From the NCBI GenBank assembly GCA_903958995.1, contig CAJBVG010000182.1:1-33542 (forward strand): a stretch of 33,542 bases of DNA, given 5' to 3'. Every line of letters starts with the position of its first letter. Position 1 is the first letter of the stretch. Made by a program: the position numbers and the translations under genes. Positions 5,085 through 33,133 of this stretch are shown in pieces. The stretch is from an uncultured bacterium (lineage in GTDB: Bacteria > Bacteroidota > Bacteroidia > Sphingobacteriales > Sphingobacteriaceae). The notes beneath the pieces are model-generated. The model did not search any database, was not told the origin of the DNA, and worked only from the letters and a program-made list of their open reading frames with translations.

Positions 5085-5148
5085 TTTGCGAATTAGCGAA
5101 CTAGCGAAATGACGAATTTGCAAATTAGCGAACTAGCGAAACGTCGAA
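5085..5148. repeat. 8-nt periodic array, NNNGCGAA x 8
   Basis: tttgcgaa|ttagcgaa|ctagcgaa|atgacgaa|tttgcaaa|ttagcgaa|ctagcgaa|acgtcgaa. It contains a 19-nt direct repeat (5091-5109 = 5123-5141). The same word family recurs at 14729-14795. Confidence 0.9.
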
Positions 5149-5154
5149 GGGTAA

Positions 5155-5184
5155 AATAAAAAAAGCCCCGAGTTTCCTCGAGGC
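5155..5184 (-). terminator. Rho-independent terminator of sucD
   Basis: On the minus strand: GCCTCGAG-gaaa-CTCGGGGC (8 bp with one G-U) followed by a run of about 10 U. Confidence 0.8.
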
Positions 5185-5197
5185 CGTATAATTTCAC

Positions 5198-5299
5198 ATT
5201 AACGTATTAATATTAACATATTAACCCATTAACATATTAACACATTAACATATTAACACATTAACATATTAACACATTAACATATTAACACATTAAATC
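5198..5299. repeat. 8-nt tandem array ATTAACAY (about 13 units; 16-nt higher-order alternation ATTAACAT/ATTAACAC)
   Basis: Units read directly from 5198. The final unit, attaaatc, contains the sucD stop codon (5293-5295). Confidence 0.95.
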
Positions 5300-6177
5300 A
5301 GTCCCGCTTTTTTCAATTCTGCTTGCATAGCTACTCCAATCTGAGCTGGAGATTCTACTACGTGGATTCCGCATTCTGCCATAATTTTCATTTTAGCAGC
5401 AGCTGTATCATCAGCACCACCAACAATCGCACCTGCATGGCCCATTCTTCTTCCTGCCGGAGCAGTTTGACCAGCGATGAAACCAACTACTGGTTTAGTA
5501 CCATGGTCTCTAATCCATAGTGCTGCTTCTGCTTCCATACCACCACCAATTTCACCAATCATAATGATACCATCCGTTTCTGGATCGTTCATTAATAATT
5601 CAACAGCTTCTTTAGTTGTTGTTCCAATGATTGGGTCACCACCAATACCAATTGCAGTTGATTGACCTAATCCTAAACGTGAGATTTGATCTACCGCTTC
5701 GTAAGTTAAGGTTCCCGATTTAGAAACGATACCCACTCTTCCTGGTTTGAAAATGAAACCTGGCATGATACCAACTTTCGCTTCACCTGCCGTCATTACC
5801 CCTGGGCAATTCGGACCAATTAAACGACAATCTTTATCACTGATATATTCTTTCACAGCAATCATATCTTTTGTAGGGATACCTTCTGTAATGCAAATAA
5901 TAACTTTAATACCTGCTTCAGCAGCTTCCATAATGGCATCTGCAGCAAATGCAGGAGGTACAAAAATAATAGATACGTTAGCCGCAGTTTTTGCTACTGC
6001 ATCAGCAACCGTATTAAATACCGGACGATCTAAATGAACCGTTCCACCTTTACCTGGAGTTACACCACCTACTACATTCGTTCCATACTCAATCATCTGA
6101 CCAGCATGAAAAGAACCTTCACTACCTGTAAATCCTTGTACAATTACTTTTGAATCTTTATTTACTAATACGCTCAT
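5293..6177 (-). CDS. sucD: Succinyl-CoA synthetase alpha subunit
   Basis: [24 protein letters not shown]...GGVTPGKGG...GHAGAI is canonical SucD. Start set at ATG 6177; the ORF extension to 6294 reads through a repeat array. Confidence 0.95.
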
Positions 6178-6226
6178 TTTTATAATATTTTGATGTTGCG
6201 AAATTACGCTATTTGTTCGGAAAAAC

Positions 6227-6314
6227 AAATGCGTAAATGTGCAGATGCGAAAATGCGTAGATTCATTAATTTGCACATTTACGCATTTGCACATTTACGC
6301 ATCTGCACATTTTC
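6227..6314. repeat. Inverted pair of 8-nt tandem arrays (AAATGYGY x 4, spacer, then the reverse-complement word RCRCATTT x 4-5)
   Basis: aaatgcgt|aaatgtgc|agatgcga|aaatgcgt|agattcat|taatttgc|acatttac|gcatttgc|acatttac|gcatctgc|acattttc, in a single 8-nt phase throughout. It occupies the divergent sucD/truA spacer. Confidence 0.9.
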
Positions 6315-6315
6315 A

Positions 6316-6323
6316 TATCTTTG
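6316..6323 (+). promoter_or_regulatory. Candidate Bacteroidota -7 promoter box (TAnnTTTG) for truA
   Basis: TATCTTTG ends 4 nt before the truA ATG (6328), which implies a leaderless or near-leaderless transcript. Confidence 0.4.
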
Positions 6324-6327
6324 TAAA

Positions 6328-7068: not shown

Positions 7069-7081
7069 GACCCCGATTGGA

Positions 7082-8830
7082 ATGAGCAGTGTTAGCGGAA
7101 AAGCAATAGATACCAAAATTTTACGTCGTATTTACCAATACCTACAACCGTACAAAAAAGTTTTTTGGATGAGTGTTGGATTAACGGTACTACTTGCTAT
7201 TGTTGCTCCTATTCGTCCCTACCTTATTCAATACACCATCGATAATTTCATTTTAGCCGATAATGCCAATGGCTTATTTACTATGGTGATGATTATGTTT
7301 GGATTACTTGCTTTTCAAACCATCATTCAATATTACCATACGGTACTTACCAATTGGCTAGGGCAGTCGGCCATACTCGATTTGCGTAAGTTGGTGTTCT
7401 CGCATTTATTAAGTTTACGTTTAAAATATTTTGACAATACTCCCATCGGGACTTTAGTAACTCGTGCGGTTTCTGATTTAGAAACTATTGCTGATGTGTT
7501 TTCGGAAGGTCTAATTGTTATCATAGGCGACATCCTTCAAATAGTAGTAATTGTTGGGGTGATGATGTATATCGATTGGCGTTTAACCTTAATTAGTTTA
7601 GCGACAATTCCTTTTCTACTAATTGCTACTTATATTTTTAAAGAGCGTACTAAAAAAGCGTTTCAAGATGTGCGTATTGAAGTGGCTAAACTGAATACTT
7701 TTTTGCAAGAGCACATTAGTGGCATGCGTATCATCCAACTTTTCGTTCGCGAAAAAGCAGAGATGGAAAAATTCAAAAACATTAATCGCCGTCACCGAAT
7801 TGCACACATAAAATCGGTTTGGTATTACTCTATATTTTTCCCTGTAGTAGAATTAATGTCGGCTACGAGTATAGGTTTACTAGTATGGTACGGTTCTAAG
7901 GAAGTGCTTGATGGTAGTTTGAGTTTAGGGGTTATTGTTTCCTTTATTATGTACATCAACATGCTATTTCGCCCTATTCGCGAACTCGCAGATAAGTTCA
8001 ATACTTTACAAATGGGTATGGTAAGTTCGGAGCGAATTTTTAGTGTGTTAGATACACAAGAACAAACTCCTAATCATGGAACAATTACTGATGTTCCAGT
8101 GCAAGGTAAAATTACATTCGACAAGGTTCGCTTTGCATATACTGAAGATCATTATGTATTGAAAAATATTTCCTTCGAATTACAGGCGGGTAAAACCCTT
8201 GCTATTGTTGGGGCTACAGGGGCTGGGAAATCTTCGATCATCAATTTACTGAATCGCTTTTATGAAATTAACGAGGGTGAAATTCGTGTAGATGATGTAG
8301 ATATTAAAAAATATGAACTCTCTTTTTTGCGTTCTAAAATTGCCACCGTTTTGCAAGATGTGTTTTTATTCTCGGATACCATTGCCGAAAATATTCGTTT
8401 AAAAAACACCGATATTTCTATTGATAAAATTATTGAAGCAGCAAAAGAAGTAGGTGCACATGATTTCATTATGAACCTCCCAGGAGGCTATGATTATAAT
8501 GTGATGGAACGAGGCGCAACGCTCTCTGTAGGGCAAGCGCAATTAATTTCTTTCATCAGAGCTTTAGTATTCAACCCAAGTATTTTGGTACTCGACGAAG
8601 CCACCTCTTCAGTAGATACCGAAAGTGAATTGCTCATTCAATCGGCTATACAAAAATTAATGCAAGGACGTACTTCTATTGTTATTGCACATCGATTATC
8701 TACTATACAAAACGCAGATCAGATTATGGTGCTAGACCACGGGGAAATTGTGGAGATGGGGACGCATCAGGAGCTTCTTCATTTGAATGGTGCGTATAAG
8801 AGGCTGTATGAACTTCAATACCAGAATTAA
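7082..8830 (+). CDS. ABC exporter, fused permease/ATPase (MsbA/lipid-exporter-like)
   Basis: Six-TM N-terminal half, Walker A GATGAGKSS, signature LSVGQAQ, Walker B ILVLDEATS. Confidence 0.92.
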   Translation: MSSVSGKAIDTKILRRIYQYLQPYKKVFWMSVGLTVLLAIVAPIRPYLIQYTIDNFILADNANGLFTMVMIMFGLLAFQTIIQYYHTVLTNWLGQSAILDLRKLVFSHLLSLRLKYFDNTPIGTLVTRAVSDLETIADVFSEGLIVIIGDILQIVVIVGVMMYIDWRLTLISLATIPFLLIATYIFKERTKKAFQDVRIEVAKLNTFLQEHISGMRIIQLFVREKAEMEKFKNINRRHRIAHIKSVWYYSIFFPVVELMSATSIGLLVWYGSKEVLDGSLSLGVIVSFIMYINMLFRPIRELADKFNTLQMGMVSSERIFSVLDTQEQTPNHGTITDVPVQGKITFDKVRFAYTEDHYVLKNISFELQAGKTLAIVGATGAGKSSIINLLNRFYEINEGEIRVDDVDIKKYELSFLRSKIATVLQDVFLFSDTIAENIRLKNTDISIDKIIEAAKEVGAHDFIMNLPGGYDYNVMERGATLSVGQAQLISFIRALVFNPSILVLDEATSSVDTESELLIQSAIQKLMQGRTSIVIAHRLSTIQNADQIMVLDHGEIVEMGTHQELLHLNGAYKRLYELQYQN

Positions 8831-8865
8831 TTCTAAATTCTAAATTCTAAGTTCTAAATTCTAAG
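8831..8865. repeat. 7-nt tandem array TTCTAAR x 5
   Basis: ttctaaa|ttctaaa|ttctaag|ttctaaa|ttctaag begins on the base after the ABC-exporter stop codon. Confidence 0.95.
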
Positions 8866-8870
8866 TTGAA

Positions 8871-9205
8871 CCTTAACTTCGCTGCGCTACGTTCGGGGAC
8901 CAATCATTTTACATTTCATAGCAGACTTGCAAAACCCCATCTCCCGATATCTATCGGGATTCGCTACGCTACCCTGCGTGGCGCAGACAGGGTTCGGGGA
9001 CCAATCATTTATCATCAGACTTGCAAAACCCCTCAACTTCGCTGCGCTACGTTCGGGGACCAATCATTTTATTCATTTATTTAAAAGTAGAAAGGGGATA
9101 TTTGAACTATGTTCAAATATCCCCTTTCTACTTTTATTTTATTTTTTTCTGAAGCTATATATAATTTATCGGTCCCCGAACGTAGCGTAGCGAAGTTGAG
9201 GGGCG
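8871..9205. repeat. Composite of GC-rich dispersed-repeat modules (direct copies plus one inverted copy), MITE-like
   Basis: AACTTCGCTGCGCTACGTTCGGGGACCAATCATTTT occurs at 8875-8910 and 9035-9070. CAGACTTGCAAAACCCC occurs at 8922-8938 and 9017-9033. There is a partial GGTTCGGGGACCAATCATTT at 8991-9010. The inverted copy at 9171-9203 matches 9029-9061 at 32/33 positions. Confidence 0.85.
9083..9146. terminator. Bidirectional terminator: perfect 25-bp stem with a 3-nt loop, followed by a T-rich tail
   Basis: AAAAGTAGAAAGGGGATATTTGAAC-tat-GTTCAAATATCCCCTTTCTACTTTT (9083-9135), then ATTTTATTTTTTT. It lies between convergent genes. Confidence 0.8.
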
Positions 9206-9210
9206 GTTAA

Positions 9211-10431: not shown

Positions 10432-10487
10432 AAGTCCTGAAATGCAAGGGGTGTTAGGAAAATGTTAATAAAATGTGAAAATATACA

Positions 10488-10528
10488 TCCCGATAGCTAT
10501 CGGGAGCGTAAATCCCGCATAAGCGGGA
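10488..10528. repeat. Two GC-rich mini-palindromes (TCCCGATAGCTATCGGGA; TCCCGC-ataa-GCGGGA)
   Basis: The first (10488-10505) is a near-identical copy of TCCCGATATCTATCGGGA at 8942-8959. Confidence 0.8.
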
Positions 10529-10534
10529 CAAGTA

Positions 10535-10601
10535 GTGCAGATGCGAAGATGTGCAGATGTGCAAATTGAATCTGCACATTTGCATATTTACGCATTTGCA
10601 C
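10535..10601. repeat. Inverted pair of 8-nt tandem arrays (GYGMARAT x 4, tga, ATYTRCRY x 4)
   Basis: gtgcagat|gcgaagat|gtgcagat|gtgcaaat|tga|atctgcac|atttgcat|atttacgc|atttgcac. Same word family as 6227-6314. It ends 6 nt before the stop of the 10608 gene. Confidence 0.9.
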
Positions 10602-10607
10602 ATCTAT

Positions 10608-11093: not shown

Positions 11094-11096
11094 CTT

Positions 11097-11187
11097 GAGT
11101 TATGAGTTATGAATTGTGAGTTGTGAGTTGAATTATGAATTGTAAATTTTAACTCACAACTCATAATTCACAATTTACAATTAGTAT
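11097..11187. repeat. 7-nt phase-locked array (13 units) with inverted arms (GAGTTRT... / ...CTCAYAA)
   Basis: gagttat|gagttat|gaattgt|gagttgt|gagttga|attatga|attgtaa|attttaa|ctcacaa|ctcataa|ttcacaa|tttacaa|ttagtat. It fills the whole spacer between the start at 11093 and the eno stop at 11188. Confidence 0.95.
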
Positions 11188-12482: not shown

Positions 12483-12610
12483 TAAATTTTAAATTGTAAA
12501 TTTTAAATTGTAATTTATTGTATTAACATATTAATCTAAGTTGTAAGTTATTTCATTAACATATTATCCTATTAACATATTAACATATTATCCTATTAAC
12601 ATATTATCCA
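12483..12610. repeat. Compound array: TAAATTK x 5 (7 nt), AAGTTRT x 2, then ATTAACAT/ATTATCCT x 7 (8 nt)
   Basis: 7-nt units run from 12483 to 12517. There is an ATTAACAT|ATTAATCT pair at 12522-12537. 8-nt units run from 12555 to 12610, and the last unit contains the carA stop (12604-12606). Confidence 0.9.
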
Positions 12611-13701
12611 AGCAAACGAACGAAGTCATCAAATAAGTAACGTGAATCATGTGGGCCTGGAGATGATTCTGGGTGATACTGTACCGAGAATGCTTTCTTG
12701 CCTTTAACACGAATTCCTTCAATACTTTGATCGTTCAAATTCACGTGAGTGATTTCCACTTTATCCGATGCATGAACATCTTCTGGGATAACGCCAAAGC
12801 CGTGATTTTGTGATGTAATCTCGCAATGATTTTGAATAATATTTTTTACCGGGTGGTTTAATCCGCGGTGACCGTTAAACATTTTATGTGTGCGGATGTC
12901 GTTTGCTAAAGCCAATAATTGGTGACCTAAACAAATGCCGAATAAAGGTTGATCATCTGCCAACACTTGTTTTACTGTTTCAATAGCGTAAGGCATTGCC
13001 GATGGATCGCCAGGACCGTTAGAAATGAAGTATCCATTCGGTTTCCAAGCTTTCATTTCTTCGTAAGTAGTTTTCGCTGGGAATACTTTTACAAATACAT
13101 CGCGTTCTGCGAAACATCTTAATATATTTTTCTTTACCCCTAAGTCTAATACAGCAACACGGTAGGTTGCATTTTCATCACCAAAAAAGTAAGGTTCTTT
13201 TGTACTTACTTCCGATGATAATTCTAAACCATCCATAGATGGTACAGAAGCTAATCTTTTCTTCAACTCTTCTACATCTAAAATTTCAGAAGAGATGATG
13301 GCATTCATCGCACCTTTATCGCGAATGTGGCGAACCAATTGGCGAGTATCGATATCGGAGATACCTACGATATTATCATTTAAAAAATAATCTTGAATAG
13401 ATTCATCGGCCATTTTGCGAGAATAGTTCATGTTGAAATTCTTACAAACCAAACCGGCAATTTTTATGCTATCCGATTCTACTTCTTCATGGCTAATTCC
13501 ATAATTCCCGATGTGGGCATTGGTGGTCACCATAATTTGTCCGAAGTAAGAAGGGTCAGTAAAAATCTCTTGGTAGCCTGTCATTCCGGTGTTAAAACAG
13601 ATCTCGCCAGTAGTGGTTCCAATTTTACCTGCCGATTTACCGTGAAATACGGTTCCGTCTATTAAAACTAATACTGCTGGGATCTTTGCAATTTCTGCCA
13701 T
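12604..13701 (-). CDS. carA: Carbamoyl-phosphate synthase small (glutaminase) subunit
   Basis: The GICLGHQ active-site Cys motif and the HPE(S) motif, with full-length similarity to CarA. Confidence 0.95.
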   Translation of the reverse strand: MAEIAKIPAVLVLIDGTVFHGKSAGKIGTTTGEICFNTGMTGYQEIFTDPSYFGQIMVTTNAHIGNYGISHEEVESDSIKIAGLVCKNFNMNYSRKMADESIQDYFLNDNIVGISDIDTRQLVRHIRDKGAMNAIISSEILDVEELKKRLASVPSMDGLELSSEVSTKEPYFFGDENATYRVAVLDLGVKKNILRCFAERDVFVKVFPAKTTYEEMKAWKPNGYFISNGPGDPSAMPYAIETVKQVLADDQPLFGICLGHQLLALANDIRTHKMFNGHRGLNHPVKNIIQNHCEITSQNHGFGVIPEDVHASDKVEITHVNLNDQSIEGIRVKGKKAFSVQYHPESSPGPHDSRYLFDDFVRLLG

Positions 13702-13721
13702 TTTTAATTCTTTTTAAGCAT

Positions 13722-13750
13722 AAAAAAAGCCTTGTAAACTAATACAAAGC
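13722..13750 (-). promoter_or_regulatory. Terminator-like hairpin plus U7 in the carA 5' leader (candidate attenuator)
   Basis: On the minus strand: GCTTTGTA-ttagtt-TACAAGGC followed by TTTTTTT, ending 20 nt before the carA ATG. The stem pairs better on the minus strand (G-U) than on the plus strand (C-A mismatch). No upstream minus-strand gene exists for it to terminate, because panB is divergent. Confidence 0.4.
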
Positions 13751-13912
13751 CTCAGGATTCATTGAAAACGAGCATTTTTGAAGAGAATTCTTCTCAACCC
13801 TTGTAACAAAGATTGTATTGATGTACATTTTCATTGCTTGCAAAGGTAAGAAAAATCAGAGAATCGTGTAAGCATTTTTTGAAAGATTGAAAATTTAGTG
13901 GACTTTTGTAAC

Positions 13913-14728
13913 ATGTCAGTACACAAAGAAGTAAAAAGAGTGACCACGCATGTGATTCAGGAAATGAAAAACAGTGGGGAAAAAATCGCGATGCTTACCG
14001 CATACGATTATTCTACAGCCCTAATTTTAGATGAAGCAGGGATTGATATTTTACTTGTAGGCGATTCGGCCTCGAATGTGATGGCTGGACATGAAACCAC
14101 CCTTCCTATTACACTTGATCAAATGATTTACCATGCCGCTTCGGTAGTGCGTGGTGTGAGTAGAGCATTGGTGGTGGTTGATTTACCTTTCGGTTCTTAC
14201 CAAGGAAATTCTAAAGAAGCATTACAGTCCTCTATTCGTATTATGAAAGAATCGGGCGGACATGCCGTGAAATTAGAAGGTGGCGCAGAAGTGCGTGAAT
14301 CAGTAGAACGTATTATTTCAGCTGGTGTACCAGTAATGGGACATTTGGGTTTAACTCCACAATCTATCTATAAATTCGGAACCTATACCGTTCGTGCTAA
14401 AGAAGAAGCAGAAGCTAATAAACTTATTGAAGATGCATTAGTGCTTCAAGAAGCTGGTTGTTTTGCTTTAGTACTCGAAAAGATTCCAGCAGAATTAGCG
14501 AAGAAAGTTACCGAGCAATTAAGCATCCCTGTAATAGGTATTGGCGCAGGCCCTCATGTAGATGGACAAGTACTTGTAGTAAATGATTTACTTGGCATTA
14601 CAAAAGGTTTCAAACCTCGTTTCTTACGTCAGTATTTGAATTTATACGAAGCAATTAATGGCGCCGTGAAATCGTATATCGGTGATGTGAAGTCGAAGGA
14701 TTTTCCGAATGAGAAAGAACAGTATTAA
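13913..14728 (+). CDS. panB: 3-methyl-2-oxobutanoate hydroxymethyltransferase
   Basis: [10 protein letters not shown]...LVGDS...VKLEGG motifs. Start set at the first ATG (13913); the tracked ORF begins at an upstream GTG. Confidence 0.93.
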
Positions 14729-14795
14729 TCGAATTTGCGAATTTGCGAACTTGCAAATTTGCGAAGGGTCGAATTGTAGAAGGGTCGAATTGTAG
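14729..14795. repeat. 8-nt phase-locked array exactly filling the stop-to-stop spacer of a convergent gene pair
   Basis: tcgaattt|gcgaattt|gcgaactt|gcaaattt|gcgaaggg|tcgaattg|tagaaggg|tcgaattg|tag. It includes a 16-nt duplication and belongs to the NNNGCGAA family seen at 5085-5148. Confidence 0.95.
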
Positions 14796-16863: not shown

Positions 16864-17010
16864 AATTAGGAATTAGGAATTAGGAATTAGGAATTTGCAC
16901 TATAGAAAAAGGACTATGGACATCGGACAAGGGACAATGGACAAAGTAAGATATCCAGTCACCAGTCACTAGTCACCAGTTACCGCTAAATAGTCACCAG
17001 TCACCATAAA
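16864..17010. repeat. 21-unit heptamer array in a single phase with drifting words (AATTAGG x 4, then ACWNNGG x 5, then CCAGTCA-type x 7)
   Basis: I read the units one by one from 16864 to 17010 without any phase slip. Confidence 0.95.
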
Positions 17011-17026: not shown

Positions 17027-17692
17027 ATGAACATATTCTACGAGGATAATCACCTCATTGCTATAAACAAACCAGCGGGTACTCTTGTGCAGGTGGATAA
17101 TACTGGAGATACATCTTTAGAGATTTTGGTAAAGGATTACATCAAGGTACAATACAACAAACCGGGTGAAGTGTTTTTAGGGGTAATACATCGCATCGAT
17201 CGTCCCGTTAGTGGATTGGTATTGATGGCGAGAACGAGTAAAGCTTTAGAGCGTGTTAACAAATCGTTTAAAGATCGTGAAGTTCAGAAAACCTATTTAG
17301 CAGTAGTTAGAAATAAACCTGCGTTAGAAGAAGGCACACTTGTTCATTGGTTAACAAGAGATACAGTGAAAGGCGTTACCAAAGCACATAACAAAGAAGT
17401 CAACGGTTCCCAACGTGCCGAACTTAGCTATAAATTATTGTCGGAAATAAATGGTTTTTATCTATTAGAAATAAAACCGATAACAGGAAGAACGCATCAA
17501 ATTCGCGTACAACTTTCTAGCATGAATTGCCCCATTGTAGGTGATAATAAATATGGATATCCTAGAGCCAATAAAGATCGTAGCATTTGCTTGCATTCTT
17601 ACAAACTAGCTTTCAACCATCCCGTTACCAAAGAACGCATGGAACTACAAGCGGATTTACCGGAAGATGCTTTTTGGCAGAAATTTAGGTAA
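17027..17692 (+). CDS. RluA-family pseudouridine synthase (no S4 domain)
   Basis: The HRIDRPVSGLVL catalytic-Asp motif and ...GRTHQIRVQL. Start set at the first ATG (17027); the tracked ORF begins at TTG. Confidence 0.9.
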   Translation: MNIFYEDNHLIAINKPAGTLVQVDNTGDTSLEILVKDYIKVQYNKPGEVFLGVIHRIDRPVSGLVLMARTSKALERVNKSFKDREVQKTYLAVVRNKPALEEGTLVHWLTRDTVKGVTKAHNKEVNGSQRAELSYKLLSEINGFYLLEIKPITGRTHQIRVQLSSMNCPIVGDNKYGYPRANKDRSICLHSYKLAFNHPVTKERMELQADLPEDAFWQKFR

Positions 17693-17765
17693 CTGGTGAC
17701 TGGTAGCTGGTAACTGGTAACTGATAAACAAATATTTCGAGTTACGAACTACGAGTTACGAGGTA
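17693..17765. repeat. 7-nt phase-locked array exactly filling a stop-to-stop spacer (CTGGTRA x 5, then TTACGAG-type x 4)
   Basis: ctggtga|ctggtag|ctggtaa|ctggtaa|ctgataa|acaaata|tttcgag|ttacgaa|ctacgag|ttacgag|gta. The first words are the reverse complement of the array upstream of the same gene. Confidence 0.95.
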
Positions 17766-18965
17766 CTACTGAGAGAATTCCGTACTCAACTTAAACCTCA
17801 CAATTCTACCATTCCCTGTATCGCAGATGTATAATGTGCTTCCGAAATAGGCAACAGCAGTTGGTCTGCGGAATTGTTTCGGACCAGAACCTGTACCACC
17901 AAATGAAACGTTAATATTTTTCTTTGATGAATAGCCTGCTGGTGGTGGAACTCCTTCTAAACCGGTTAAGGTAAATAAGTACACCGAATCTTTTGTAGCA
18001 TCGGTTACGAAAATATAATTACTTCCATCGCCTGCAATAGTTATCCCTCTTGGTTCTGTAAACTTATTTGGAGTGTACATAAATCCATCTGCTTTTGTGG
18101 TGTCTTGTCCGGCTAAGCTAGTATTTAATGAATATGATGAACCAAATTCTGAAGAAACAAAGCTGATGTATTGAGTTTTTATTGATGTACTACTCGATAA
18201 AGAAGTGAAAAGAAAATCGCCTCCTTGTTTTACAATATTACTTTGTGGTGCTTTCGCTAAAGTTGAAATGGCAAATGGTGATTTAAAATAATCGGAAATC
18301 AATCCTTGCTCTGTGCTTACACTTACGTTACTTACGAACTTATCGTTTTGGTTAAATACTAAAACTGAATTATCAGGACCGCCAATTTGCGATGAGCTGT
18401 TCGATGGACCAGAACGTGTGATGTAATAACTATTATCGGCCATCATGCTGATTCCATTGATGTGTACAGCAGAATCGGAAGTGGTGAACGATGTTTTAAA
18501 ATAGAAAGGATGAACAACTGTTTTTGAGATGATCGCATTGTTTAATCCGTAACCATTACTCGTAATTAATTTTAAACGATACAAGGCATCGAGTGTATAA
18601 TTCTTACCATTGATGACAGTATCTTTTGTCCCAAGTACTAATAATTCCAAGCTTCTATCCATGGCAATGGCTTTTGCATTTGGAATGCTCTTCTCTCCTA
18701 CTTTTCTGCCCGACTGATCGAATGAAATAACTTTACCTGCATTCTTATCGGCAATGTAAATTAACTCGTCATAACCAATCGTAATGTCGACTGGTGAAGC
18801 AGTAATTTTAATATCAGGAAGAATTGGTACGAATGCGATTGGTTTTTCATCGTAGTTTGGAACGTCGATGAAACCTAAATTAGTTTTATCACCAAATGGT
18901 TTTTCACAAGAGGATAATACACTTGATAGAATAACTAATCCGAATAAATATTTTCTAATCATCAT
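17766..18965 (-). CDS. Lipoprotein with C-terminal NHL-like beta-propeller repeats
   Basis: Lipobox LSSVLSSC. Repeats PRGITIAGDGSNYIFVTDATKDSVYLF and RPTAVAYFGSTLYICDTGNGRIVRF. The start lies 1 nt from the upstream stop codon. Confidence 0.75.
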   Translation of the reverse strand: MMIRKYLFGLVILSSVLSSCEKPFGDKTNLGFIDVPNYDEKPIAFVPILPDIKITASPVDITIGYDELIYIADKNAGKVISFDQSGRKVGEKSIPNAKAIAMDRSLELLVLGTKDTVINGKNYTLDALYRLKLITSNGYGLNNAIISKTVVHPFYFKTSFTTSDSAVHINGISMMADNSYYITRSGPSNSSSQIGGPDNSVLVFNQNDKFVSNVSVSTEQGLISDYFKSPFAISTLAKAPQSNIVKQGGDFLFTSLSSSTSIKTQYISFVSSEFGSSYSLNTSLAGQDTTKADGFMYTPNKFTEPRGITIAGDGSNYIFVTDATKDSVYLFTLTGLEGVPPPAGYSSKKNINVSFGGTGSGPKQFRRPTAVAYFGSTLYICDTGNGRIVRFKLSTEFSQ

Positions 18966-19981: not shown

Positions 19982-20098
19982 TGTATTAAGTACAATGTAT
20001 TATGTATTATGTATTATTATTTTTCATTGTACATTGTACTTAATACATTGTACAGAACATTAACATATTATCCCATTAACATATTAACATATTAATTA
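19982..20098. repeat. Compound array: 7-nt words (TGTATTA x 4 / ACATTGT x 3, partly inverted), then 8-nt ATTAACAT/ATTATCCC x 5
   Basis: 7-nt units run from 19982 to 20058 and 8-nt units from 20059 to 20098. The last unit, attaatta, contains the stop codon of the 20096 gene. GTACAATGTATTA (19990-20002) pairs with TAATACATTGTAC (20041-20053). Confidence 0.9.
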
Positions 20099-22924: not shown

Positions 22925-22988
22925 TCTCTGTGTCTCTGTGCCTCTGTGATTAGGAATACTTAAACACAGAGACACAATGACACAGTTT
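22925..22988. repeat. Inverted pair of 8-nt arrays (YCTCTGTG x 3, 16-nt spacer, CACARNNN x 3)
   Basis: tctctgtg|tctctgtg|cctctgtg|attaggaatacttaaa|cacagaga|cacaatga|cacagttt. The spacer is exactly two units long, so phase is kept. TGTGTCTCTGTG pairs with CACAGAGACACA. Confidence 0.9.
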
Positions 22989-22993: not shown

Positions 22994-23365
22994 TCAATTA
23001 ATACATCTTGTTATTCCATCTTTTAATAATGGGACATTAAAATTAATTAACAAACCAATTTTTTTATTTGATAATTTCAAATAGGACAAAAGCTGTGCTT
23101 TGTGAACAGGTAAAACTAATTCAACAGCTTTTAATTCTATTAATACTTGCTCATTGACAAGCACATCAATAAAAAAACATTTTTCTAATTCAACTCCTTT
23201 GTAAACAACCTTTACTGGAGCATTCTCTCTACATTCAAATCCTTTAAGTCTCAACTCTTGAATCAAACATTTTTGATATACTGATTCTAAAAGTCCAGGT
23301 CCTAAATTTTTATGAACCTCAAAACTTGCTGACACTACAGCTTTTGTAATTTCATTATAATCCAT
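22994..23365 (-). CDS. GxxExxY protein (PD-(D/E)XK-like small protein family)
   Basis: 123 aa with the eponymous motif GPGLLESVY, followed by the ...DVLVNEQVLIELKAV... core. Confidence 0.85.
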   Translation of the reverse strand: MDYNEITKAVVSASFEVHKNLGPGLLESVYQKCLIQELRLKGFECRENAPVKVVYKGVELEKCFFIDVLVNEQVLIELKAVELVLPVHKAQLLSYLKLSNKKIGLLINFNVPLLKDGITRCIN

Positions 23366-23423
23366 CTCACTAATCCTTTCTATTTAATATTATAATCTAC
23401 AATATATCATTCATCTTAACTCA

Positions 23424-23471
23424 CCGGTCCCTGAGCCCTGCCCGCGCAGGCGGGGGAGCCGAAGGGCCCGG
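23424..23471. repeat. GC-rich hairpin (family C) carrying an internal 18-nt GC mini-hairpin
   Basis: CCGGTCCCTGAGC[CCTGCCCGCGCAGGCGGG]GGAGCCGAAGGGCCCGG. Without the bracketed part it matches GGTCCCTGAGCGGAGCCGAAGGGACC at 25970-25995. It ends 2 nt from the stop codon at 23474. Confidence 0.85.
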
Positions 23472-23473
23472 TA

Positions 23474-25951: not shown

Positions 25952-25969
25952 ATATACTATTTTAATGAC

Positions 25970-25995
25970 GGTCCCTGAGCGGAGCCGAAGGGACC
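25970..25995. repeat. GC-rich hairpin, family C (GGTCCCT-gagcggagccga-AGGGACC)
   Basis: 7-bp stem, 5 nt 3' of the stop at 26001. Related to 23424-23471. Confidence 0.8.
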
Positions 25996-26000
25996 TATTA

Positions 26001-28112
26001 CTATTTCGTCACTACAAAACGTCCATTATTCAACACACCTGCAGAAGCAGAAGAAATGCTGTAAATGTATGTTCCTTGTGATAAAGAAGAGATATCAATT
26101 TTAACTGTTCCTGTAGTTTCAGTTAATGTTGTAGTATTTACAACACGACCGAAAATATCATAAACAGTAAGCATTAAATCTGCAGAATTAACTGGCATGA
26201 TGTAATCTAAGTTCAAATTAGTAGTTGCAGGGTTTGGATAAACAACTGCTTTACCTTTATTAACGAATGATGATGTAATACCTAAAGCGGTATAAGTATC
26301 AAAATCATTATTGTTTCTTGGTAATAATTTCAAGTTACTGAATGAGTAAGTCATGATACCAGTTAACGAATTCATGCGATCACCTTTTTTAACAACGATG
26401 ATATCGATACCTGCATTTGGTGTCCATGAGCTATCATTCACATAAGAAACATTTAATGAAGAGAATGAAGTACTAGTTTGACGACCAGCAATGACACGGC
26501 AACCAGCACCAGCATCAGTAGTATCTTTTCCTACACGGTATTCAGCGAAATTACTTGGATCATCAGCATTTTGATTGATAATATATAAACCATTTGTTGG
26601 CATAAATTTAACAACCATACCTTCATAAGGCTCAGAACCTGTTGGGCTTTGGAAACGGAATGAATCTGCTTCAACTACTACTGGAGTAATTACACCTGAT
26701 CCATTTTTAGTAACTGAAGTAACACTTTCTAAACGTGTTAATCCGAAGTATTCTTTTACAGTACCAGTGATGGTAACTTTTTCGCCTGTTAATAATGTAG
26801 ATAAACCAGTTCCATTTGCTACGAAAATACCAGCATATGTACCTTGGTTTTCTTGTTGAATGTGAACATAACCTAAATCAGAAACTGAAGATGTAACCAC
26901 ACCAGTAACTGTTACTGCTTGATCAACAAATCCTGAGTTACCAGATTTGAATGGAGAATATTGAACATCATAAATAGTTAAACCATTATTTCTAACTACA
27001 TAGAATTTTGGATCTTCTGCAGGAACATTAGGAATACGACTAGTTAAATTTGCAGGAGATGCATCTTTAGCCATGATGTAATATTTCACTAAAGAACCAT
27101 CTGCTTGAGCAGCGATATTAGCTGTATATAAATTTCCATTTGCACTCATTGGAACAGCAATGTAACTATTGCTAGTTGCTCCAACAGCATAATATAATAC
27201 AGCAGTATCAACACCTTCTTGATCGGTGATGTTAGCTGAAATCATTACTGAGTTAGTGTTATTAGGCACAACGAAATTTCTTGTAATACCTGAAATTGAA
27301 GGTGCAGAAGCTCCCCAAACTACATCAGCAGGTTTAATAGGATGTAACTCATAACCTCTATTATTTTTAGAGTGTAATAAAACACCTTTGATAGAGTTGA
27401 TAAAGTCACCTACTACAGGAGGTACAAATGTTCCACCTGTTGCTGGTAAACGGAATGATGAGAAACGATCTGAAATATTCATTTTGTTTCCTGAAGCATC
27501 AATTACGTTGAAACTTACACGAGCACCATTAGAGAAATAATCAACTGAAGAAACTGTTAAATTACGTAGTTCTACATATTGACCTTCATACTGCTCACCA
27601 GTAGTAAGGATGTTATTTCTATTGATGTCGTTTAATTCTGCAGCAGTAACTAATTTTGCTTTAACAGTAATTCCACCACCTAATAATATAATAGGTGTAG
27701 CTGGATTTGTATTGTTAGGTACGAATTCAGTTTCACCTTGGAATTCTTCCACGTGACCAGTAATTTCTACAGAGTCACCTTCTACAAGTGATAAGATACC
27801 TGTACCACCATCACCCGGAGTTGTAGAACCTGGGAATGGTTGATAAACGTCAATTCCTGAGAAAGCCGAACCATCATTGGTTTGAATCCAAATTTGTTTA
27901 CCACCAACAATAGTAGATAAACCAGCATCCATAATTACAACACCACGAATACGAATAGTATCTGTAATGGCAAATGAAGACGCATCATTTCCTGCCGCTA
28001 AATCTTGTTGCGACACCGTTTGTACTTCTGTGATAGTTTTTAAAGGATATTGTGCATTTGCAGCAATAGCCATCACTAAGAAGCATGCTAATGAAAGTAA
28101 TTTTTTGTTCAT
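26001..28112 (-). CDS. Secreted T9SS substrate with duplicated OB-fold-like modules of the type found N-terminal to ExeM/NucH extracellular nucleases
   Basis: Signal peptide ...AIAANAQ. Module 1 is ITEVQ...IRIRGVVI...IWIQTNDG..SGIDVY...LVEGDSVEITGHVEEFQGETEF. Module 2 is IYDVQYS...VTVTGVVTS...VHIQQEN..AGIFVAN...LLTGEKVTITGTVKEYFGLTRL. T9SS tail VVYPNPATTNLNL...GTYIYSI. Confidence 0.65.
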   Translation of the reverse strand: MNKKLLSLACFLVMAIAANAQYPLKTITEVQTVSQQDLAAGNDASSFAITDTIRIRGVVIMDAGLSTIVGGKQIWIQTNDGSAFSGIDVYQPFPGSTTPGDGGTGILSLVEGDSVEITGHVEEFQGETEFVPNNTNPATPIILLGGGITVKAKLVTAAELNDINRNNILTTGEQYEGQYVELRNLTVSSVDYFSNGARVSFNVIDASGNKMNISDRFSSFRLPATGGTFVPPVVGDFINSIKGVLLHSKNNRGYELHPIKPADVVWGASAPSISGITRNFVVPNNTNSVMISANITDQEGVDTAVLYYAVGATSNSYIAVPMSANGNLYTANIAAQADGSLVKYYIMAKDASPANLTSRIPNVPAEDPKFYVVRNNGLTIYDVQYSPFKSGNSGFVDQAVTVTGVVTSSVSDLGYVHIQQENQGTYAGIFVANGTGLSTLLTGEKVTITGTVKEYFGLTRLESVTSVTKNGSGVITPVVVEADSFRFQSPTGSEPYEGMVVKFMPTNGLYIINQNADDPSNFAEYRVGKDTTDAGAGCRVIAGRQTSTSFSSLNVSYVNDSSWTPNAGIDIIVVKKGDRMNSLTGIMTYSFSNLKLLPRNNNDFDTYTALGITSSFVNKGKAVVYPNPATTNLNLDYIMPVNSADLMLTVYDIFGRVVNTTTLTETTGTVKIDISSLSQGTYIYSISSASAGVLNNGRFVVTK

Positions 28113-28151
28113 TTTATTTTTGTTTGTTTTTCTTTTGTTCGTTTTTTTTTC

Positions 28152-28276
28152 GTCGGAGTGTCCCTGTCTGCAACAGGCAGGCTCGCTTCGACATTAATCT
28201 TGTGTTCGTCGAAGCGTCCTCGCTTCGACATTAATTCATATAATCTGTCGGAGTGTCCTCACTCCGACGAACGGTT
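28152..28276. repeat. Cluster of three family-B REP-like hairpins
   Basis: The first is GTCGGAGTG..[CCTGTCTGCAACAGGCAGG]..CTCGCTTCGAC (28152-28192). The second is GTCGAAGCG-tcct-CGCTTCGAC (28208-28229, an inverted copy of 947-968). The third is GTCGGAGTG-tcct-CACTCCGAC + GAACGGTT (28247-28276). The first two are each followed by ATTAAT. Confidence 0.85.
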
Positions 28277-28284
28277 CAATAATT

Positions 28285-30399: not shown

Positions 30400-30400
30400 G

Positions 30401-31696
30401 TTATTTCTTCAATAGTTTACGTTGTATTACCCAACCATTTTCATTACGGATTTTCAAGATATAAACTCCTTGATTCAAGTCGAATGGTAATGTATAATGC
30501 AAATCATTTTCTGTGAATAGATGATTAAATTTCAACAGACGTTTTGCATTAATATCGAATAATTCAAAACTGATATTTTTAGAAAGCAATGCTGCTGAAA
30601 CGTGTATGTTCAACTCATTACTAATTGGGTTTTGTAAATAAATTTGATTTTCGAAATTTTTCAACTCTTGTGAAACGCTTTGTGGTAAAGGTTTCTTCGG
30701 TGTAAACACAAAATCTGCGCGGATAGGAATGTGGTCCGACATGTTGTATAAAGCACCTAATACATCTGTTGGCACTGAAGTATTTGTTGGTGCGGCATTA
30801 ATCGCTAAATTAAAATGCTGCCCATCATTTCCAACTGGAATGTATGTACTTGGTAGTATTCTCATATTTGCCGAATCCGAAATTAATGATTTTGAACAAA
30901 GCATAATATCAAATCGATCATCCATACCTCCACTAGAAAATCCGCCTGTTTGTGTAGTATGGGTAGATTGAGTATGGATATTCGAATAAGCTGAATTATT
31001 ATTCCAAGTGCCTACCTTATTCAATGGATCTTTTAACTTATTTAAACTATCCGTGTTCGTGGTTAATTGATAAAACGCTGCTTCTGTATTGGTGTAAACG
31101 TTAAAATCGCCCATCACCATAATATTCTTGCTTTTGCCGAACGCATTAATGTAATTTACTATTTGAATAGCTTCATTACCTCGCGTTGCTTCATCACTAG
31201 ACGTATTCCCTGCTTTAAAGTGAAGAACAAGCACCGTAAAAAAAATAGTATCTCCAGTTTTCACACTATTAGAATCAACATACATGAAATTAAACCCAGT
31301 AATTTCTCGCTGAACTGTACTTACTGTATCCTGACTTAATAATTTTAATTTAGTAGAATTATAGAAAATCGTATTGGTTAATGATTTATCGACACCTGCC
31401 TTAGATAAGGCTCCTCTTCTCCATGAGGTAACTCCATTAATATTAAGTGCTCCAGTTAATACGTTTTGAGCATAATCTGCTGTAGCCGATAATTCATTTA
31501 CACCTATTACATCAGGCTGAACATAGGTTACAATTGTATTTAACAATGGGTTTTTAAAGCTTGGCTCTTTGCCGCTTTCCCCATAACGAAATAAGTTGTA
31601 TTGCATCACTCTCAAGGTATCTTGAGAAAACGCAGTTAACTGCATAAAAACAGTCAACAATACAAACACGAGCAATACTCTTTTCTTGTTCTCCAT
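30401..31696 (-). CDS. Secreted endonuclease/exonuclease/phosphatase (EEP) family enzyme with a T9SS C-terminal domain
   Basis: EEP motifs in the correct order: MQYNL, GVNE, MGDFN, DDRFD, SDHIP. C-terminal domain ...GVYILKIRNENGWVIQRKLLKK. Confidence 0.8.
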   Translation of the reverse strand: MENKKRVLLVFVLLTVFMQLTAFSQDTLRVMQYNLFRYGESGKEPSFKNPLLNTIVTYVQPDVIGVNELSATADYAQNVLTGALNINGVTSWRRGALSKAGVDKSLTNTIFYNSTKLKLLSQDTVSTVQREITGFNFMYVDSNSVKTGDTIFFTVLVLHFKAGNTSSDEATRGNEAIQIVNYINAFGKSKNIMVMGDFNVYTNTEAAFYQLTTNTDSLNKLKDPLNKVGTWNNNSAYSNIHTQSTHTTQTGGFSSGGMDDRFDIMLCSKSLISDSANMRILPSTYIPVGNDGQHFNLAINAAPTNTSVPTDVLGALYNMSDHIPIRADFVFTPKKPLPQSVSQELKNFENQIYLQNPISNELNIHVSAALLSKNISFELFDINAKRLLKFNHLFTENDLHYTLPFDLNQGVYILKIRNENGWVIQRKLLKK

Positions 31697-31716
31697 TATT
31701 TAGGTAAAATAGCTAA

Positions 31717-31724
31717 CAAATGTA
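31717..31724 (-). promoter_or_regulatory. Candidate -7 box (TACATTTG on the minus strand) for the EEP-led operon
   Basis: Matches TAnnTTTG, 20 nt upstream of ATG 31696. Confidence 0.35.
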
Positions 31725-31778
31725 AAAATATTATTCCGCTCCTTTATTAAGGAAATATTAACATTTTTAGGGAATTAA

Positions 31779-32000
31779 CTAAAATTTAGCACAAGGTATT
31801 GGGCGACGGTTGTATTTGGAATGCGAGCCAAATTTTAAGCCTCCGTTAAATTCGTAAATGACTGATATTTCGTGACTTCCAGAAGTTTTTTGGAATAATC
31901 CAGAAGTAGTTATATCATATGAATAGCCGATTCTTAATGGTTTATCTTCCAAAGCGTAACCTAAAAGGATTACAAAGGCATCGTTATTAACATTTTTCAA
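31779..32000 (-). pseudogene. C-terminal remnant of a PorP/SprF-family T9SS membrane protein
   Basis: The 73 codons end ...GYSYDITTSGL...SGSHEISVIYEF...RRPIPCAKF, which matches my recollection of the family C-terminus. There is no ATG (TTG only). The roughly 250 N-terminal residues are missing because the gpsA stop lies 20 nt upstream. Confidence 0.55.
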
Positions 32001-32019
32001 GGTGAAACTACTTATACAA

Positions 32020-33027
32020 CTAGGTAAGCTTTTCTGATAATAATTTCATTTCGATAAGCGGAGAGATATTTTCGTATAGAATTCCATATACCGTGCGGCA
32101 AATCGGAATATTAGCTTTTAATTGTTTGTTGATTTCATGAATACACTTCACCGCATAATAGCCTTCAGCAATCATGCCCATTTCAAACTGAGCCGACTTT
32201 ACCGAATACCCCTTACCAATCATATTTCCGAAGGTTCTATTCCTACTGAACTGGGAGTATGCTGTAACTAGGAGGTCTCCTAAATAGGCTGACTCTTTAA
32301 TATCTCTATTGATAGGATGTACAGCAGCTAAAAAGGCGTCCATTTCTCTGCTAGCATTGGAGATGAGTACAGCTTGAAAGTTATCACCATAGTGTAAGCC
32401 ATGGCAAATACCTGAAGCTATGGCATAAATATTTTTAAGCACTGCTGCGTATTCAGTTCCATAAATATCATCACTTGTAATGGTTTTTATGTAACGTGTA
32501 TTTAGCATACTCGCGAACGTTTCTGCATTTTCTTGATTCTCACAAGCAATAGTTAAGTAAGATAACTTTTCTAAGGCTACTTCTTCTGCGTGACAAGGAC
32601 CTGAAATGACTAAAATTTGATCAATTGGAACTTGGTATATTTCCCTGAAATAATCACCAATAATTAAGTTGTATTCAGGTACAATTCCTTTAATTGCCGA
32701 TACTATGTATTTCGATTTAAAAACTTCAGGATTTACCGCAGAGAGTGTTGTATGTAAAAACGCTGCAGGTACAGCAAATATTAGGCAATCCACCTCGTCT
32801 ATCACTTTGTTTAAATCAGAACTCACATGGTCTGGATTGATTTTTATTTCTGCAGAACGAAGGTAATTTAAATTATGCCCGTATTTACGAATATTGTCTA
32901 TCGCTAATTCATCACGCATCCACCAACGTACTTCATGTTTTGCATCACATAACATCTTTACAATTGCTGTAGCCCAACTCCCACCACCAATCACTGCTAC
33001 TCTAGAATTCGCGATTAACTTATCCAT
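32020..33027 (-). CDS. gpsA: NAD(P)H-dependent glycerol-3-phosphate dehydrogenase
   Basis: The VAVIGGGSWATA Rossmann motif, with full-length GpsA-like sequence. Confidence 0.92.
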   Translation of the reverse strand: MDKLIANSRVAVIGGGSWATAIVKMLCDAKHEVRWWMRDELAIDNIRKYGHNLNYLRSAEIKINPDHVSSDLNKVIDEVDCLIFAVPAAFLHTTLSAVNPEVFKSKYIVSAIKGIVPEYNLIIGDYFREIYQVPIDQILVISGPCHAEEVALEKLSYLTIACENQENAETFASMLNTRYIKTITSDDIYGTEYAAVLKNIYAIASGICHGLHYGDNFQAVLISNASREMDAFLAAVHPINRDIKESAYLGDLLVTAYSQFSRNRTFGNMIGKGYSVKSAQFEMGMIAEGYYAVKCIHEINKQLKANIPICRTVYGILYENISPLIEMKLLSEKLT

Positions 33028-33053
33028 GTCCTTTTGTTTAGTTGAACAAATAT

Positions 33054-33133
33054 ATAATAATATGTTAATGGGATAATATGTTAATGTGTTAATGGGATAA
33101 TATGTTAATGTGCCAATGAGCTAATGTGCTAAT
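33054..33133. repeat. 8-nt array NNNNTAAT x 10 (ATGTTAAT/GGGATAAT), the reverse complement of the ATTAACAT/ATTATCCC family
   Basis: ataataat|atgttaat|gggataat|atgttaat|gtgttaat|gggataat|atgttaat|gtgccaat|gagctaat|gtgctaat. Confidence 0.95.

Follow-up and report, generated by a model that had tools for sequence, protein, structure and literature searches.

Tandem arrays of 7- and 8-nucleotide words fill about a quarter of the intergenic DNA in a freshwater Sphingobacteriales lineage

The stretch analyzed here, called the window below, is positions 1 to 33,542 (forward strand) of contig CAJBVG010000182.1 from an uncultured bacterium (GenBank assembly GCA_903958995.1), with a G+C content of about 36%. 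It carries the housekeeping genes SDR, sucD, truA, an ABC exporter, enolase, carA, panB, rluA and gpsA, and it also codes for several proteins with type IX secretion tails and for a TonB-dependent receptor. This combination identifies the window as Bacteroidota, and its gene order, together with about 80% protein identity to Pedobacter/Sphingobacteriaceae loci, points to a Sphingobacteriales-like organism. Matching metagenome contigs bear the project labels BUCK21 and MEHR18, which we take to be freshwater lake surveys. An earlier sequence-only reading had described at least 13 spacers of the window, which it listed, as largely or entirely tandem units of 7 or 8 nt. We found that these arrays are genuine short-unit minisatellites, which fill about a quarter of the intergenic DNA in this freshwater Sphingobacteriales lineage.

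We used two methods to examine the 13 intervals, and they agreed at all of them. Tandem Repeats Finder (TRF) detected period-7 or period-8 arrays at every interval, plus superperiods of 16, 24, 32 and 33 nt, with 3 to 12.6 copies per array in the window. In the lag analysis, the self-match of each interval was scored over lags 2 to 12 and its maximum was compared with that of 500 shuffles. The best self-match fell at lag 7 or 8 in 13 of 13 intervals (identity 0.54-0.89), lags 6 and 9 were at background level in the 13 intervals, and no shuffle out of 500 reached the observed maximum (null mean 0.34-0.47; p<0.002 per interval). For the enrichment test proposed with the original description, TRF was run on 3,543 nt of spacer and 30 kb of coding DNA, with 200 dinucleotide-preserving shuffles as the control. 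The spacers gave 12 period-7 and 12 period-8 rows covering 868 nt (24.5%), against an expectation of 0.085 such rows and 2.3 nt in shuffled spacers, and the 30 kb of coding DNA in the window gave none. TRF found no spacer array of period 4, 5, 6, 9 or 10 in the window. The statement that the period is never 6 or 9 thus holds for the window but not for its relatives and the phylum, where both periods occur at low frequency.

As the sequence-only reading had noticed, the phase is kept for up to 21 units while the word mutates. Set in rows of 7, the interval 16864-17010 runs through 21 successive units without loss of phase, while point mutation carries the word from AATTAGG through ACAAGGG to CCAGTCA. 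The arrays also touch or include start and stop codons. The stop codons of the ABC transporter (8828-8830), rluA (17690-17692), carA (12604-12606) and sucD (5293-5295) lie inside array units; the spacers 14729-14795 and 17693-17765 consist of array throughout, from one stop codon to the other, and the spacer 11094-11187 is array from the enolase stop to nearly the DUF4293 start. The secreted-protein block at 23.4-31.8 kb had been said to carry GC-rich hairpins in place of arrays. It indeed has GC-rich palindromes, and TRF finds no 7/8-nt arrays in it; one of its spacers, 23366-23473, still gives a weak lag-7 signal (0.43).

Among the Genome Taxonomy Database species representatives there was no close genome (top enolase match 80%), and relatives were recovered by protein look-ups. 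We compared the window with three syntenic relatives (L089, ~91% nucleotide identity; L092, ~79%; L094, ~78%), with the conspecific assemblies L081-L088 and L096-L102, and with 80 other Bacteroidota enolase loci (1.31 Mb). The same arrays were recovered in more than 10 independent assemblies from ENA, JGI, NCBI and Logan, made by differing projects and assemblers, which shows that they are not an assembly artefact and answers another check proposed at the outset.

Along the window, the arrays differ in word, period and arrangement. Between the sucD terminator and an SDR promoter-like box lies a period-8 array of the GCGAATTA/GCGAACTA family with a 32-nt superperiod (5085-5148; lag 8 = 0.71), which is mildly C>G on the SDR sense strand and varies across strains by 16-nt unit blocks. 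At 5198-5299 is a period-8 array of ATTAACAT/ATTAACAC in 12.6 copies (lag 8 = 0.80), whose words we grouped as family A. It reads TTAATGTG on the sucD sense strand, begins at the sucD stop codon and stops before a terminator at 5185-5164, so that the order after sucD is stop, array, terminator, array, promoter-like box and SDR. This array has 12 units in the window, and 5, 4 and about 3 in conspecific assemblies. The divergent spacer of sucD and truA holds an inverted period-8 pair, AAATGCGA/AAATGTGC against CATTTACG/CATTTGCA, predicted to form a hairpin (6227-6314; folding energy dG −45.5; z score against shuffled sequence −11). Each of its arms is C-rich on the sense strand of the gene that it faces, and a −7 box, TATCTTTG, follows the right arm. 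A period-7 array of AATTCTA (8829-8865; lag 7 = 0.89) starts within the ABC-transporter stop codon, with five units in the window and four in the conspecific L101.

Directly behind the DUF4293 stop, the inverted period-8 pair GTGCAGAT / TGCACATT forms a hairpin (10535-10603; dG −31.1, z −7.4), in whose place L096 and L097 have a different array hairpin. The whole spacer from enolase to DUF4293 (11094-11187) is made of inverted period-7 arrays, TGAGTTG/TGAATTG against CAACTCA/CATAACT (z −7.0); on the mRNA strand, the G/T-rich arm comes first, behind the stop codon, and a G-free arm then reaches to the ATG. Alleles of this spacer measure 82, 94, 95 and 108 nt in other assemblies, and the 108-nt hairpin has one more unit in the arm and one more in the loop than the 94-nt hairpin. 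In the spacer from carA to enolase, TRF and lag analysis identified period-7 TAAATTT/TAAATTG arrays, period-8 family-A arrays and a 33-nt block repeat (12483-12610). The period-7 part adjoins the enolase ATG and the family-A part takes in the carA stop codon; in conspecific assemblies the spacer is 77, 93, 118 or 126 nt long. The convergent spacer of panB and the M23 gene (14729-14795) consists entirely of the period-8 arrays CGAATTTG and CGAAGGGT (lag 8 = 0.69), measuring 67 nt in the window and 75 nt, or a 220-nt allele, in other strains.

The 21 in-phase units of 16864-17010, in the divergent spacer of M23 and rluA, are AATTAGG (x4.6), GGACAAG-type words and CCAGTCA (x7), and the array ends at the rluA −7 boxes TAAATTTG/TACATTTG. 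At the other end of rluA, the spacer convergent with the NHL gene (17688-17766) has period-7 arrays of GGTAACT/GGTGACT, taking in the rluA stop, and of CGAGTTA, which form an imperfect hairpin (z −4.0). The word at 16955-17006 returns in its left array as the reverse complement, and CCAGTCA flanks rluA on both sides in opposite orientations. At 19982-20098, the inverted period-7 arrays TGTATTA / CATTGTA form a hairpin (z −6.8) and are accompanied by a period-8 family-A array directly beside the stop codon of the TonB receptor; L097 has a hairpin resembling repetitive extragenic palindromic (REP) elements inserted within this array. From the GxxExxY gene to the TonB-receptor start, inverted period-8 arrays of TCTCTGTG (x3) and CACAGAGA-type words form a further hairpin (22925-22988; dG −35.3, z −8.7). 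Upstream of gpsA, the period-8 family-A array TAATGTGN (x9.6; 33054-33134; lag 8 = 0.72) is C-rich when read in the sense of gpsA, and its end is at the −7 box TATATTTG.

Alignment of orthologous spacers between strains, a further check suggested by the sequence-only reading, revealed differences of whole units. Spacer alleles in independent assemblies differ by units or blocks of 7, 8, 16, 24, 33 or 64 nt, and gap lengths between strains peak at 7 and 16. This whole-unit length polymorphism directly supports a slippage-type process. A dedicated slippage or template-switch process had been suggested; the slippage part is supported and template switching is plausible, but we found no evidence for a dedicated enzyme. 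At the 22925-22988 site L097 carries only one CACAGAGA unit, against three and an inverted arm in the window, which shows growth from, or decay to, a local seed. Some spacers are wholly different alleles between strains despite flanks at least 95% identical, consistent with recombination. In the relatives, nearly all orthologous spacers hold arrays, often with another word and copy number, and REP-like GC hairpins insert into arrays. We also noticed that arrays often lie at scaffold gaps or contig ends, such as an N gap in the enolase-DUF4293 spacer of L081 and the ends of L118, L128, L143, L145 and L169; L081 further joins two alternative hairpin alleles in one scaffold. Arrays of this kind fragment or mis-join short-read assemblies, and they also define the stop codons of neighboring genes.

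We then compared the window lineage with the phylum. Arrays, inverted pairs included, are carried by 30 of the 80 Bacteroidota loci, and the array-bearing groups include Lentimicrobiaceae, Cyclobacteriaceae, Spirosoma, Mucilaginibacter and Pedobacter. The periods of non-coding arrays at the 80 loci are 7 (63 arrays), 8 (29), 9 (11), 6 (8), 4 (5), 10 (2) and 5 (1); in the window lineage they are 7 (48), 8 (27), 9 (2) and 6 (1). The preference for 7-8 nt is therefore phylum-wide, and the lineage-specific part is density, which amounts to 18.6-53.5 array bases/kb in the window lineage against a mean of 2.6. Additionally, a metagenome scan for TTAATRTG x3 returned tandem TTAATGTG/TTAATATG arrays in at least 120 contigs (L103-L222) from varied environments and of 17-59% G+C; the count has no control word beside it and is not a measure of enrichment. 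In many of these contigs, the TAA of the first unit doubles as the stop codon of the upstream open reading frame (ORF).

The composition of the arrays follows the genes beside them. For arrays no more than 40 nt from a gene end, taken from the window, the three relatives and the 80 loci, we found that on the sense strand stop-adjacent arrays are C-poor, with G>C in 45 cases and C>G in 13, whereas start-adjacent arrays are G-poor, with C>G in 42 and G>C in 9 (Mann-Whitney p=1.6e-8; p=1.2e-5 without the window lineage). Array-free flanks have skews of only −0.08 and +0.01, and the array skew is about five times this background. Where the spacer is divergent, each of the two arms conforms to the rule for the gene on its own side, so that an origin of the skew in the replication strand is excluded. 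The G-poor arrays before starts are consequently almost free of ATG, GTG and TTG: no such codon occurs on the sense strand in 65% of them, or on the antisense strand in 25%. It is established that Bacteroidetes do not use Shine-Dalgarno sequences, that mRNA structure tunes their initiation and that AUG is under-represented near their start codons (PMC6847099), and both the strand rule and the start-codon depletion fit this mode of initiation. A selected function was among the possibilities raised by the sequence-only reading, and the strand rule relative to flanking genes supports a selected component. Its more specific idea of translational insulation fared unevenly: start-codon depletion ahead of genes is clear, but only 52% of the arrays behind genes carry stops in all three frames, a modest enrichment over the 35% found for the opposite strand.

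Two features had escaped the sequence-only reading, the pairing of inverted arrays and the recurrence of word families. Inverted pairs (6227-6312, 10535-10603, 11096-11182, 17688-17766, 19982-20054 and 22925-22988) account for about half of the arrays and fold into imperfect stems of 25-35 bp with loops of 8-21 nt and z scores of −4 to −11.6. Most compact inverted pairs share one handedness: the G/T-rich arm lies 5' of the A/C-rich arm in 33 cases and 3' of it in 10. Words are also shared between spacers: the ATTAACAT word recurs in four, and TGCG/TGCACAT, GCGAA...CGAAGGGT and TGAGTTG/TAAATTG in two each.

The view that ordinary terminators, CRISPRs (clustered regularly interspaced short palindromic repeats) or known REPs do not explain the arrays proved correct. 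No array hairpin was called as an intrinsic terminator, and canonical hairpin-plus-T terminators lie apart from the arrays, elsewhere in the same spacers (such as 5185-5164 and 9086-9132) or in the array-free panB-carA spacer (13753-13726). CRISPR arrays are rejected because the units are contiguous and 7-8 nt long, and the window ORFs encode no cas domains. REPs and bacterial interspersed mosaic elements (BIMEs) are near-identical GC-rich palindromes, whereas the arrays are A/T-rich tandem 7/8-mers of many words. Rfam covariance models at the gathering score gave 0 matches in the whole window. A −7 box of the Bacteroidetes type (TAnnTTTG) lies between array and ATG for truA, rluA and gpsA; for enolase, DUF4293, the PorV-like gene and the TonB receptor the array reaches the ATG, as expected of intercistronic spacers.

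In the relatives, genes matching PF05635/TIGR02436 occupy spacers where the window has ORF-less hairpins. These models describe the '23S rRNA intervening sequence (IVS) protein', of the S23p family of four-helix bundles. Such genes lie at 13637-13996 and 17133-17468 in L089, where the arms of the 6227-6314 hairpin enclose one, and at 11611-11865 in L092, 13332-13694 in L094 and 11203-11562 in L096, with further ones in L018, L047, L068, L077, L104, L133, L137, L162 and L180. All of them are flanked by inverted arrays of one word family and stand between housekeeping genes. The same layout was seen in unrelated metagenome contigs, including one GxxExxY gene, and in 4 of the 80 enolase loci. By local alignment, the flanks are complementary (z>4) in 17 of the 22 small-ORF cassettes examined, compared with 0 of 41 enolase controls; in an unbiased set, arrays occur in 6 of 8 spacers beside such genes, compared with 53 of 686 overall. 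Further, the S23p and GxxExxY genes are present or absent at the same site between close relatives.

The window itself has a GxxExxY / PD-(D/E)XK_3 gene on the reverse strand at 22994-23365 (TIGR04256, E = 2e-41), which adjoins the hairpin array; at this site the conspecific L097 (250-400) has neither gene nor hairpin. A homologue at 810-1187 of L150 is flanked by inverted GCAAAGGT arrays. We found no complementary flanks at the window gene, and the window has no S23p-family ORF: its hairpin loops measure 8-21 nt, and ORF 8927-9190, considered as a degraded S23p gene, has no Pfam match. Because arrays greatly outnumber these genes and the arm words are local, we read the cassettes as insertion into, or loss from, pre-existing hairpins and not as the origin of all arrays. 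In the searchable literature we came across no account of S23p or GxxExxY genes flanked by such repeats.

Two other features accompany these genes. Several S23p-family genes have in common an upstream AAAGGGGAAnnGTG-ATG motif; it looks like a Shine-Dalgarno sequence, a signal of which this phylum normally makes no use. A perfect palindrome, CTGCATATATGCAG, lies about 35 nt upstream of a GxxExxY gene (L150, 1223) and of an S23p-family gene (L162, 1452) in unrelated contigs; these are its only two exact copies in the 2.2 Mb of DNA compared, with variants in L089 (~13553), L094 and L096. We rejected it as an SOS operator, as Bacteroidetes SOS boxes are GGA-N5-TCC and CTAA-N5-TTAG.

Heptanucleotide-biased bacterial tandem repeats have been noted since 1990 and 2007. 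The short tandemly repeated repetitive (STRR) sequences of cyanobacteria, which are built of specific words, are the oldest example and are variable enough for strain fingerprinting. Neither their preference for 7 nt nor a function of such repeats has, to our knowledge, an accepted explanation. The architecture is not without precedent, a point that the sequence-only reading missed: tandem arrays made mostly of heptamers are on record from the intergenic DNA of cyanobacteria, Xanthomonas, Burkholderia, Beggiatoaceae and some few Bacteroidetes (PMC4679880, PMC4692102). According to Mrazek 2007, as these two papers relay it, the commonest long simple sequence repeats of many prokaryotes are heptanucleotides, and polymerase slippage was proposed. 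The window arrays resemble long simple sequence repeats, which have 5-11-nt units (also Huang & Mrazek 2014, PMC4060949), in being head-to-tail, intergenic, heptamer-rich and sporadic in phylogenetic distribution. They have at least three tandem copies, an intergenic excess and whole-unit strain variation, and heptamers are the most abundant class: heptamers and octamers number 12 and 12 in the window, 48 and 27 in the lineage, and 63 and 29 in other Bacteroidota, where periods 6 and 9 together number 19. They differ in that they are degenerate and multi-word, with 8-nt units as common as 7-nt units in the window, and in their density (24.5%).

Comparison with individual systems sharpened these differences. 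Like the STRRs of Calothrix and Nostoc (PMC4692102), the arrays are tandem, intergenic and variable, with several heptamer words per genome. The organism nevertheless belongs to another phylum and uses other words, and octamers and inverted-pair hairpins are prominent in the window, so that the arrays are not STRRs in the strict sense and the resemblance is one of kind only. The TAACTGA repeats of Beggiatoaceae, Cyanobacteria and five Bacteroidetes lie mostly just upstream of start codons (MacGregor 2015, PMC4679880). As with our arrays, they mostly have one orientation before starts and the reverse after a stop, and contigs break in them; in Gramella, Aequorivita and Elizabethkingia, other heptamer arrays occur in the same spacers (PMC4679880). 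Exact tandem TAACTGA (TAACTGATAACTGA) is absent from the window, which has TAACTGG TAACTGA at 17711-17724 and related TGACTGG words. That study followed a single word, with no general strand-composition rule or stem-loop cassettes, whereas the window uses many unrelated families; beyond it, we found nothing in the searchable literature on heptamer or octamer arrays of Bacteroidota. GGGAATC in Xanthomonas and GGGGA(T/C)T in Nostoc recur at conserved gene pairs, with extensive length and sequence variation in close relatives and some inverted copies (Rehm et al. 2015, PMC4692102). Those words are G-rich and quadruplex-capable, unlike the A/T-rich window words, which lack G-runs.

The 23S rRNA IVS of Coxiella and Leptospira has a 28-bp stem with an S23p ORF in its loop and is excised by RNase III (PMC4990558). 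The cassettes of the relatives are alike in having S23p-family ORFs in the loop of a long stem of complementary flanks; they differ in lying between protein-coding genes, not in a 23S rRNA helix, and in having stems made of 7/8-nt words. The window has stems of 25-35 bp, with ORF-less hairpins plus the one GxxExxY gene. REP/BIME elements with their REP-associated tyrosine transposase (RAYT) are likewise intergenic, repeated and hairpin-forming, and the window also has REP-like palindromes and a RAYT-like gene; REPs, however, are 20-40-nt GC-rich palindromic units. The class of array is thus already known, and what appears to be new, as far as the literature could be searched, is the 8-nt period co-dominant in the window, the density, the general strand rule with the hairpin handedness, and the S23p/GxxExxY cassettes. 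The strand rule, the hairpin handedness and the link to small ORFs were not found in the searchable literature, in which Mrazek 2007 is represented second-hand.

Taking these results into account, we favor the reading, with a probability of roughly 0.55, that the arrays are minisatellites produced by slippage and template switching, whose persistence is filtered by orientation-specific selection on transcripts in a phylum without Shine-Dalgarno initiation. It is supported by the enrichment, the whole-unit polymorphism, growth from local seeds, the phylum-wide period spectrum, hairpin stability, the strand rule, the start-codon depletion and the precedents. Units would be gained and lost by slipped-strand mispairing during replication, and inverted arms would arise by intrastrand template switching. 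Selection would discard arrays that place start codons or G-rich structure ahead of a gene, a filter on orientation that would matter because the phylum initiates without Shine-Dalgarno pairing. The surviving arrays may be tolerated, possibly useful spacer modules that give a start-codon-free leader, and paired arms would give a long stem between cistrons, a possible site of RNA processing or stability. Such a function of the arrays, any transcript processing included, is inferred.

Several observations weigh against this reading. The folding energies of the stems on the sense and antisense strands show no consistent bias, and hence no G-U wobble signature of selection on RNA pairing. The start-proximal arrays of truA, rluA and gpsA lie upstream of the −7 box and the 5085-5148 array lies downstream of a terminator; these arrays may be outside the 5' untranslated region, which weakens the leader rationale there. 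The recurrence of words across spacers and in at least 120 metagenome contigs is not predicted by purely local slippage. In addition, genes at the comparison loci were simple ORF calls with approximate start positions. Since the stems are no more stable on the sense strand than on the other and some start-proximal arrays lie upstream of the −7 box, transcript-level selection on the arrays is plausible but not proven.

Alternatively, the arrays may be neutral junk minisatellites left by slippage-prone replication or repair, free of function and of orientation-specific selection. The whole-unit polymorphism and fast turnover agree with this, as do the difference of words between lineages and the occurrence of arrays in 5', 3', convergent and divergent spacers alike; the constrained spacer between panB and carA, moreover, is conserved and array-free. 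Neutrality nevertheless leaves unexplained a skew relative to genes of about five times background, one dominant hairpin handedness, a start-codon depletion confined to the sense strand and word families shared between spacers, and we consider it unlikely.

Quite unlikely, in our estimate, is that the hairpin arrays are arms or ORF-less remnants of IVS-like selfish cassettes, with an S23p or GxxExxY gene in the loop, and that these, and not just local slippage, drove the spread of arrays. The PF05635/TIGR02436 genes within hairpin spacers that are ORF-less in the window, the complementary flanks (17/22 vs 0/41), the arrays in adjoining spacers (6/8 vs 53/686), the presence or absence of the genes between close relatives and a layout matching the Coxiella and Leptospira IVS (PMC4990558) all speak for such cassettes. 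Yet arrays occur at 30 of 80 loci and a PF05635 gene at only 4, many arrays have direct repeats only, neither a transposase nor a recombinase is encoded, and the window GxxExxY gene has no complementary flanks. The arm words, belonging to the local spacer, fit better with insertion into a pre-existing hairpin. A bolder version, which we regard as speculative and equally improbable, would make the arrays working arms of an undescribed class of IVS-like stem-loop cassettes, widespread in Bacteroidota and perhaps cyanobacteria, in which inverted arrays would form long stems of RNA or DNA and small genes for S23p-family (Avd-like four-helix-bundle) and GxxExxY nuclease-fold proteins would enter and leave the loops. 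ORF-less hairpins would then be non-autonomous derivatives or landing pads, and a strand-specific generating process, not selection alone, would set the handedness and the 7-8-nt period.

Very doubtful is the idea that the arrays are platforms for a protein reading single-stranded RNA or DNA in steps of about 7 nt, acting in post-transcriptional regulation. Cold-shock OB-fold proteins and ribosomal protein S1 have been proposed as binders of TAACTGA repeats, and the 7-8-nt period matches the footprint per OB-fold domain discussed there (PMC4679880); the arrays also adjoin start codons in an oriented manner. However, the arrays draw on dozens of unrelated words, often follow stop codons or lie in convergent spacers as well, and vary freely in copy number from strain to strain, and genomic context links no candidate protein. 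Finally, an assembly or sequencing artefact, to which the arrays at contig ends and the one scaffold with an N gap inside an array might point, has a negligible chance given identical arrays in more than 10 independent assemblies that differ by orderly whole units.

With about a quarter of its spacer DNA in arrays, dozens of word families and unit polymorphism visible in public metagenomes, the lineage is an unusually rich natural system for the study of such repeats. The strand rule, the hairpin handedness and the embedding of S23p/GxxExxY genes are testable handles for telling junk from RNA-level spacer modules and from parts of mobile cassettes.

The window contains other repeats as well. 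An ORF at 71-625 on the reverse strand has an IS200-like Y1 transposase domain (Pfam E=3e-6) and a weak match to the NCBIfam RAYT model. Beside it, at 724-841, is a perfect 43-bp tandem repeat (x2.7) whose unit holds the palindrome CGACGCGATTTATCGCGTCG, and the layout of 71-841 resembles a putative REP/RAYT locus. GC-rich palindromes occur at 23420-23473, 25965-26000, 28150-28275, 946-975, 8866-9210 and 10470-10510 and fall into several families resembling REPs or miniature inverted-repeat transposable elements; examples are GGTCCCTGAGCG..AGCCGAAGGGACC, CGTCGGAGTG..CACTCCGACG, GTCGAAGCG..CGCTTCGAC, TCCCGATAGCTATCGGGA and CCCCTCAACTTCGC..GGGGACC. They vary in presence between strains, and in L097 and L089 they lie inside word arrays. 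A T-rich imperfect 15-nt repeat, TTTTTTGTTCGTTTT (x3.3; 28101-28153), overlaps the start of a 703-aa secreted-protein gene and extends a little way upstream; it is another kind of repeat than the 7/8-nt arrays.

Two spacer hairpins may be regulatory or terminating elements. The divergent spacer of panB and carA (13702-13897) is array-free, has no Rfam match and is conserved even in relatives with nucleotide identity as low as about 78%. Within it, just upstream of carA, is a terminator-like hairpin (13753-13726, reverse strand), whose position suggests a possible carA leader or attenuator. Between the convergent genes for a type IX secretion-tail protein and the ABC exporter, a 20-bp perfect palindrome with T-runs on both sides (9086-9132) looks like a candidate bidirectional intrinsic terminator.

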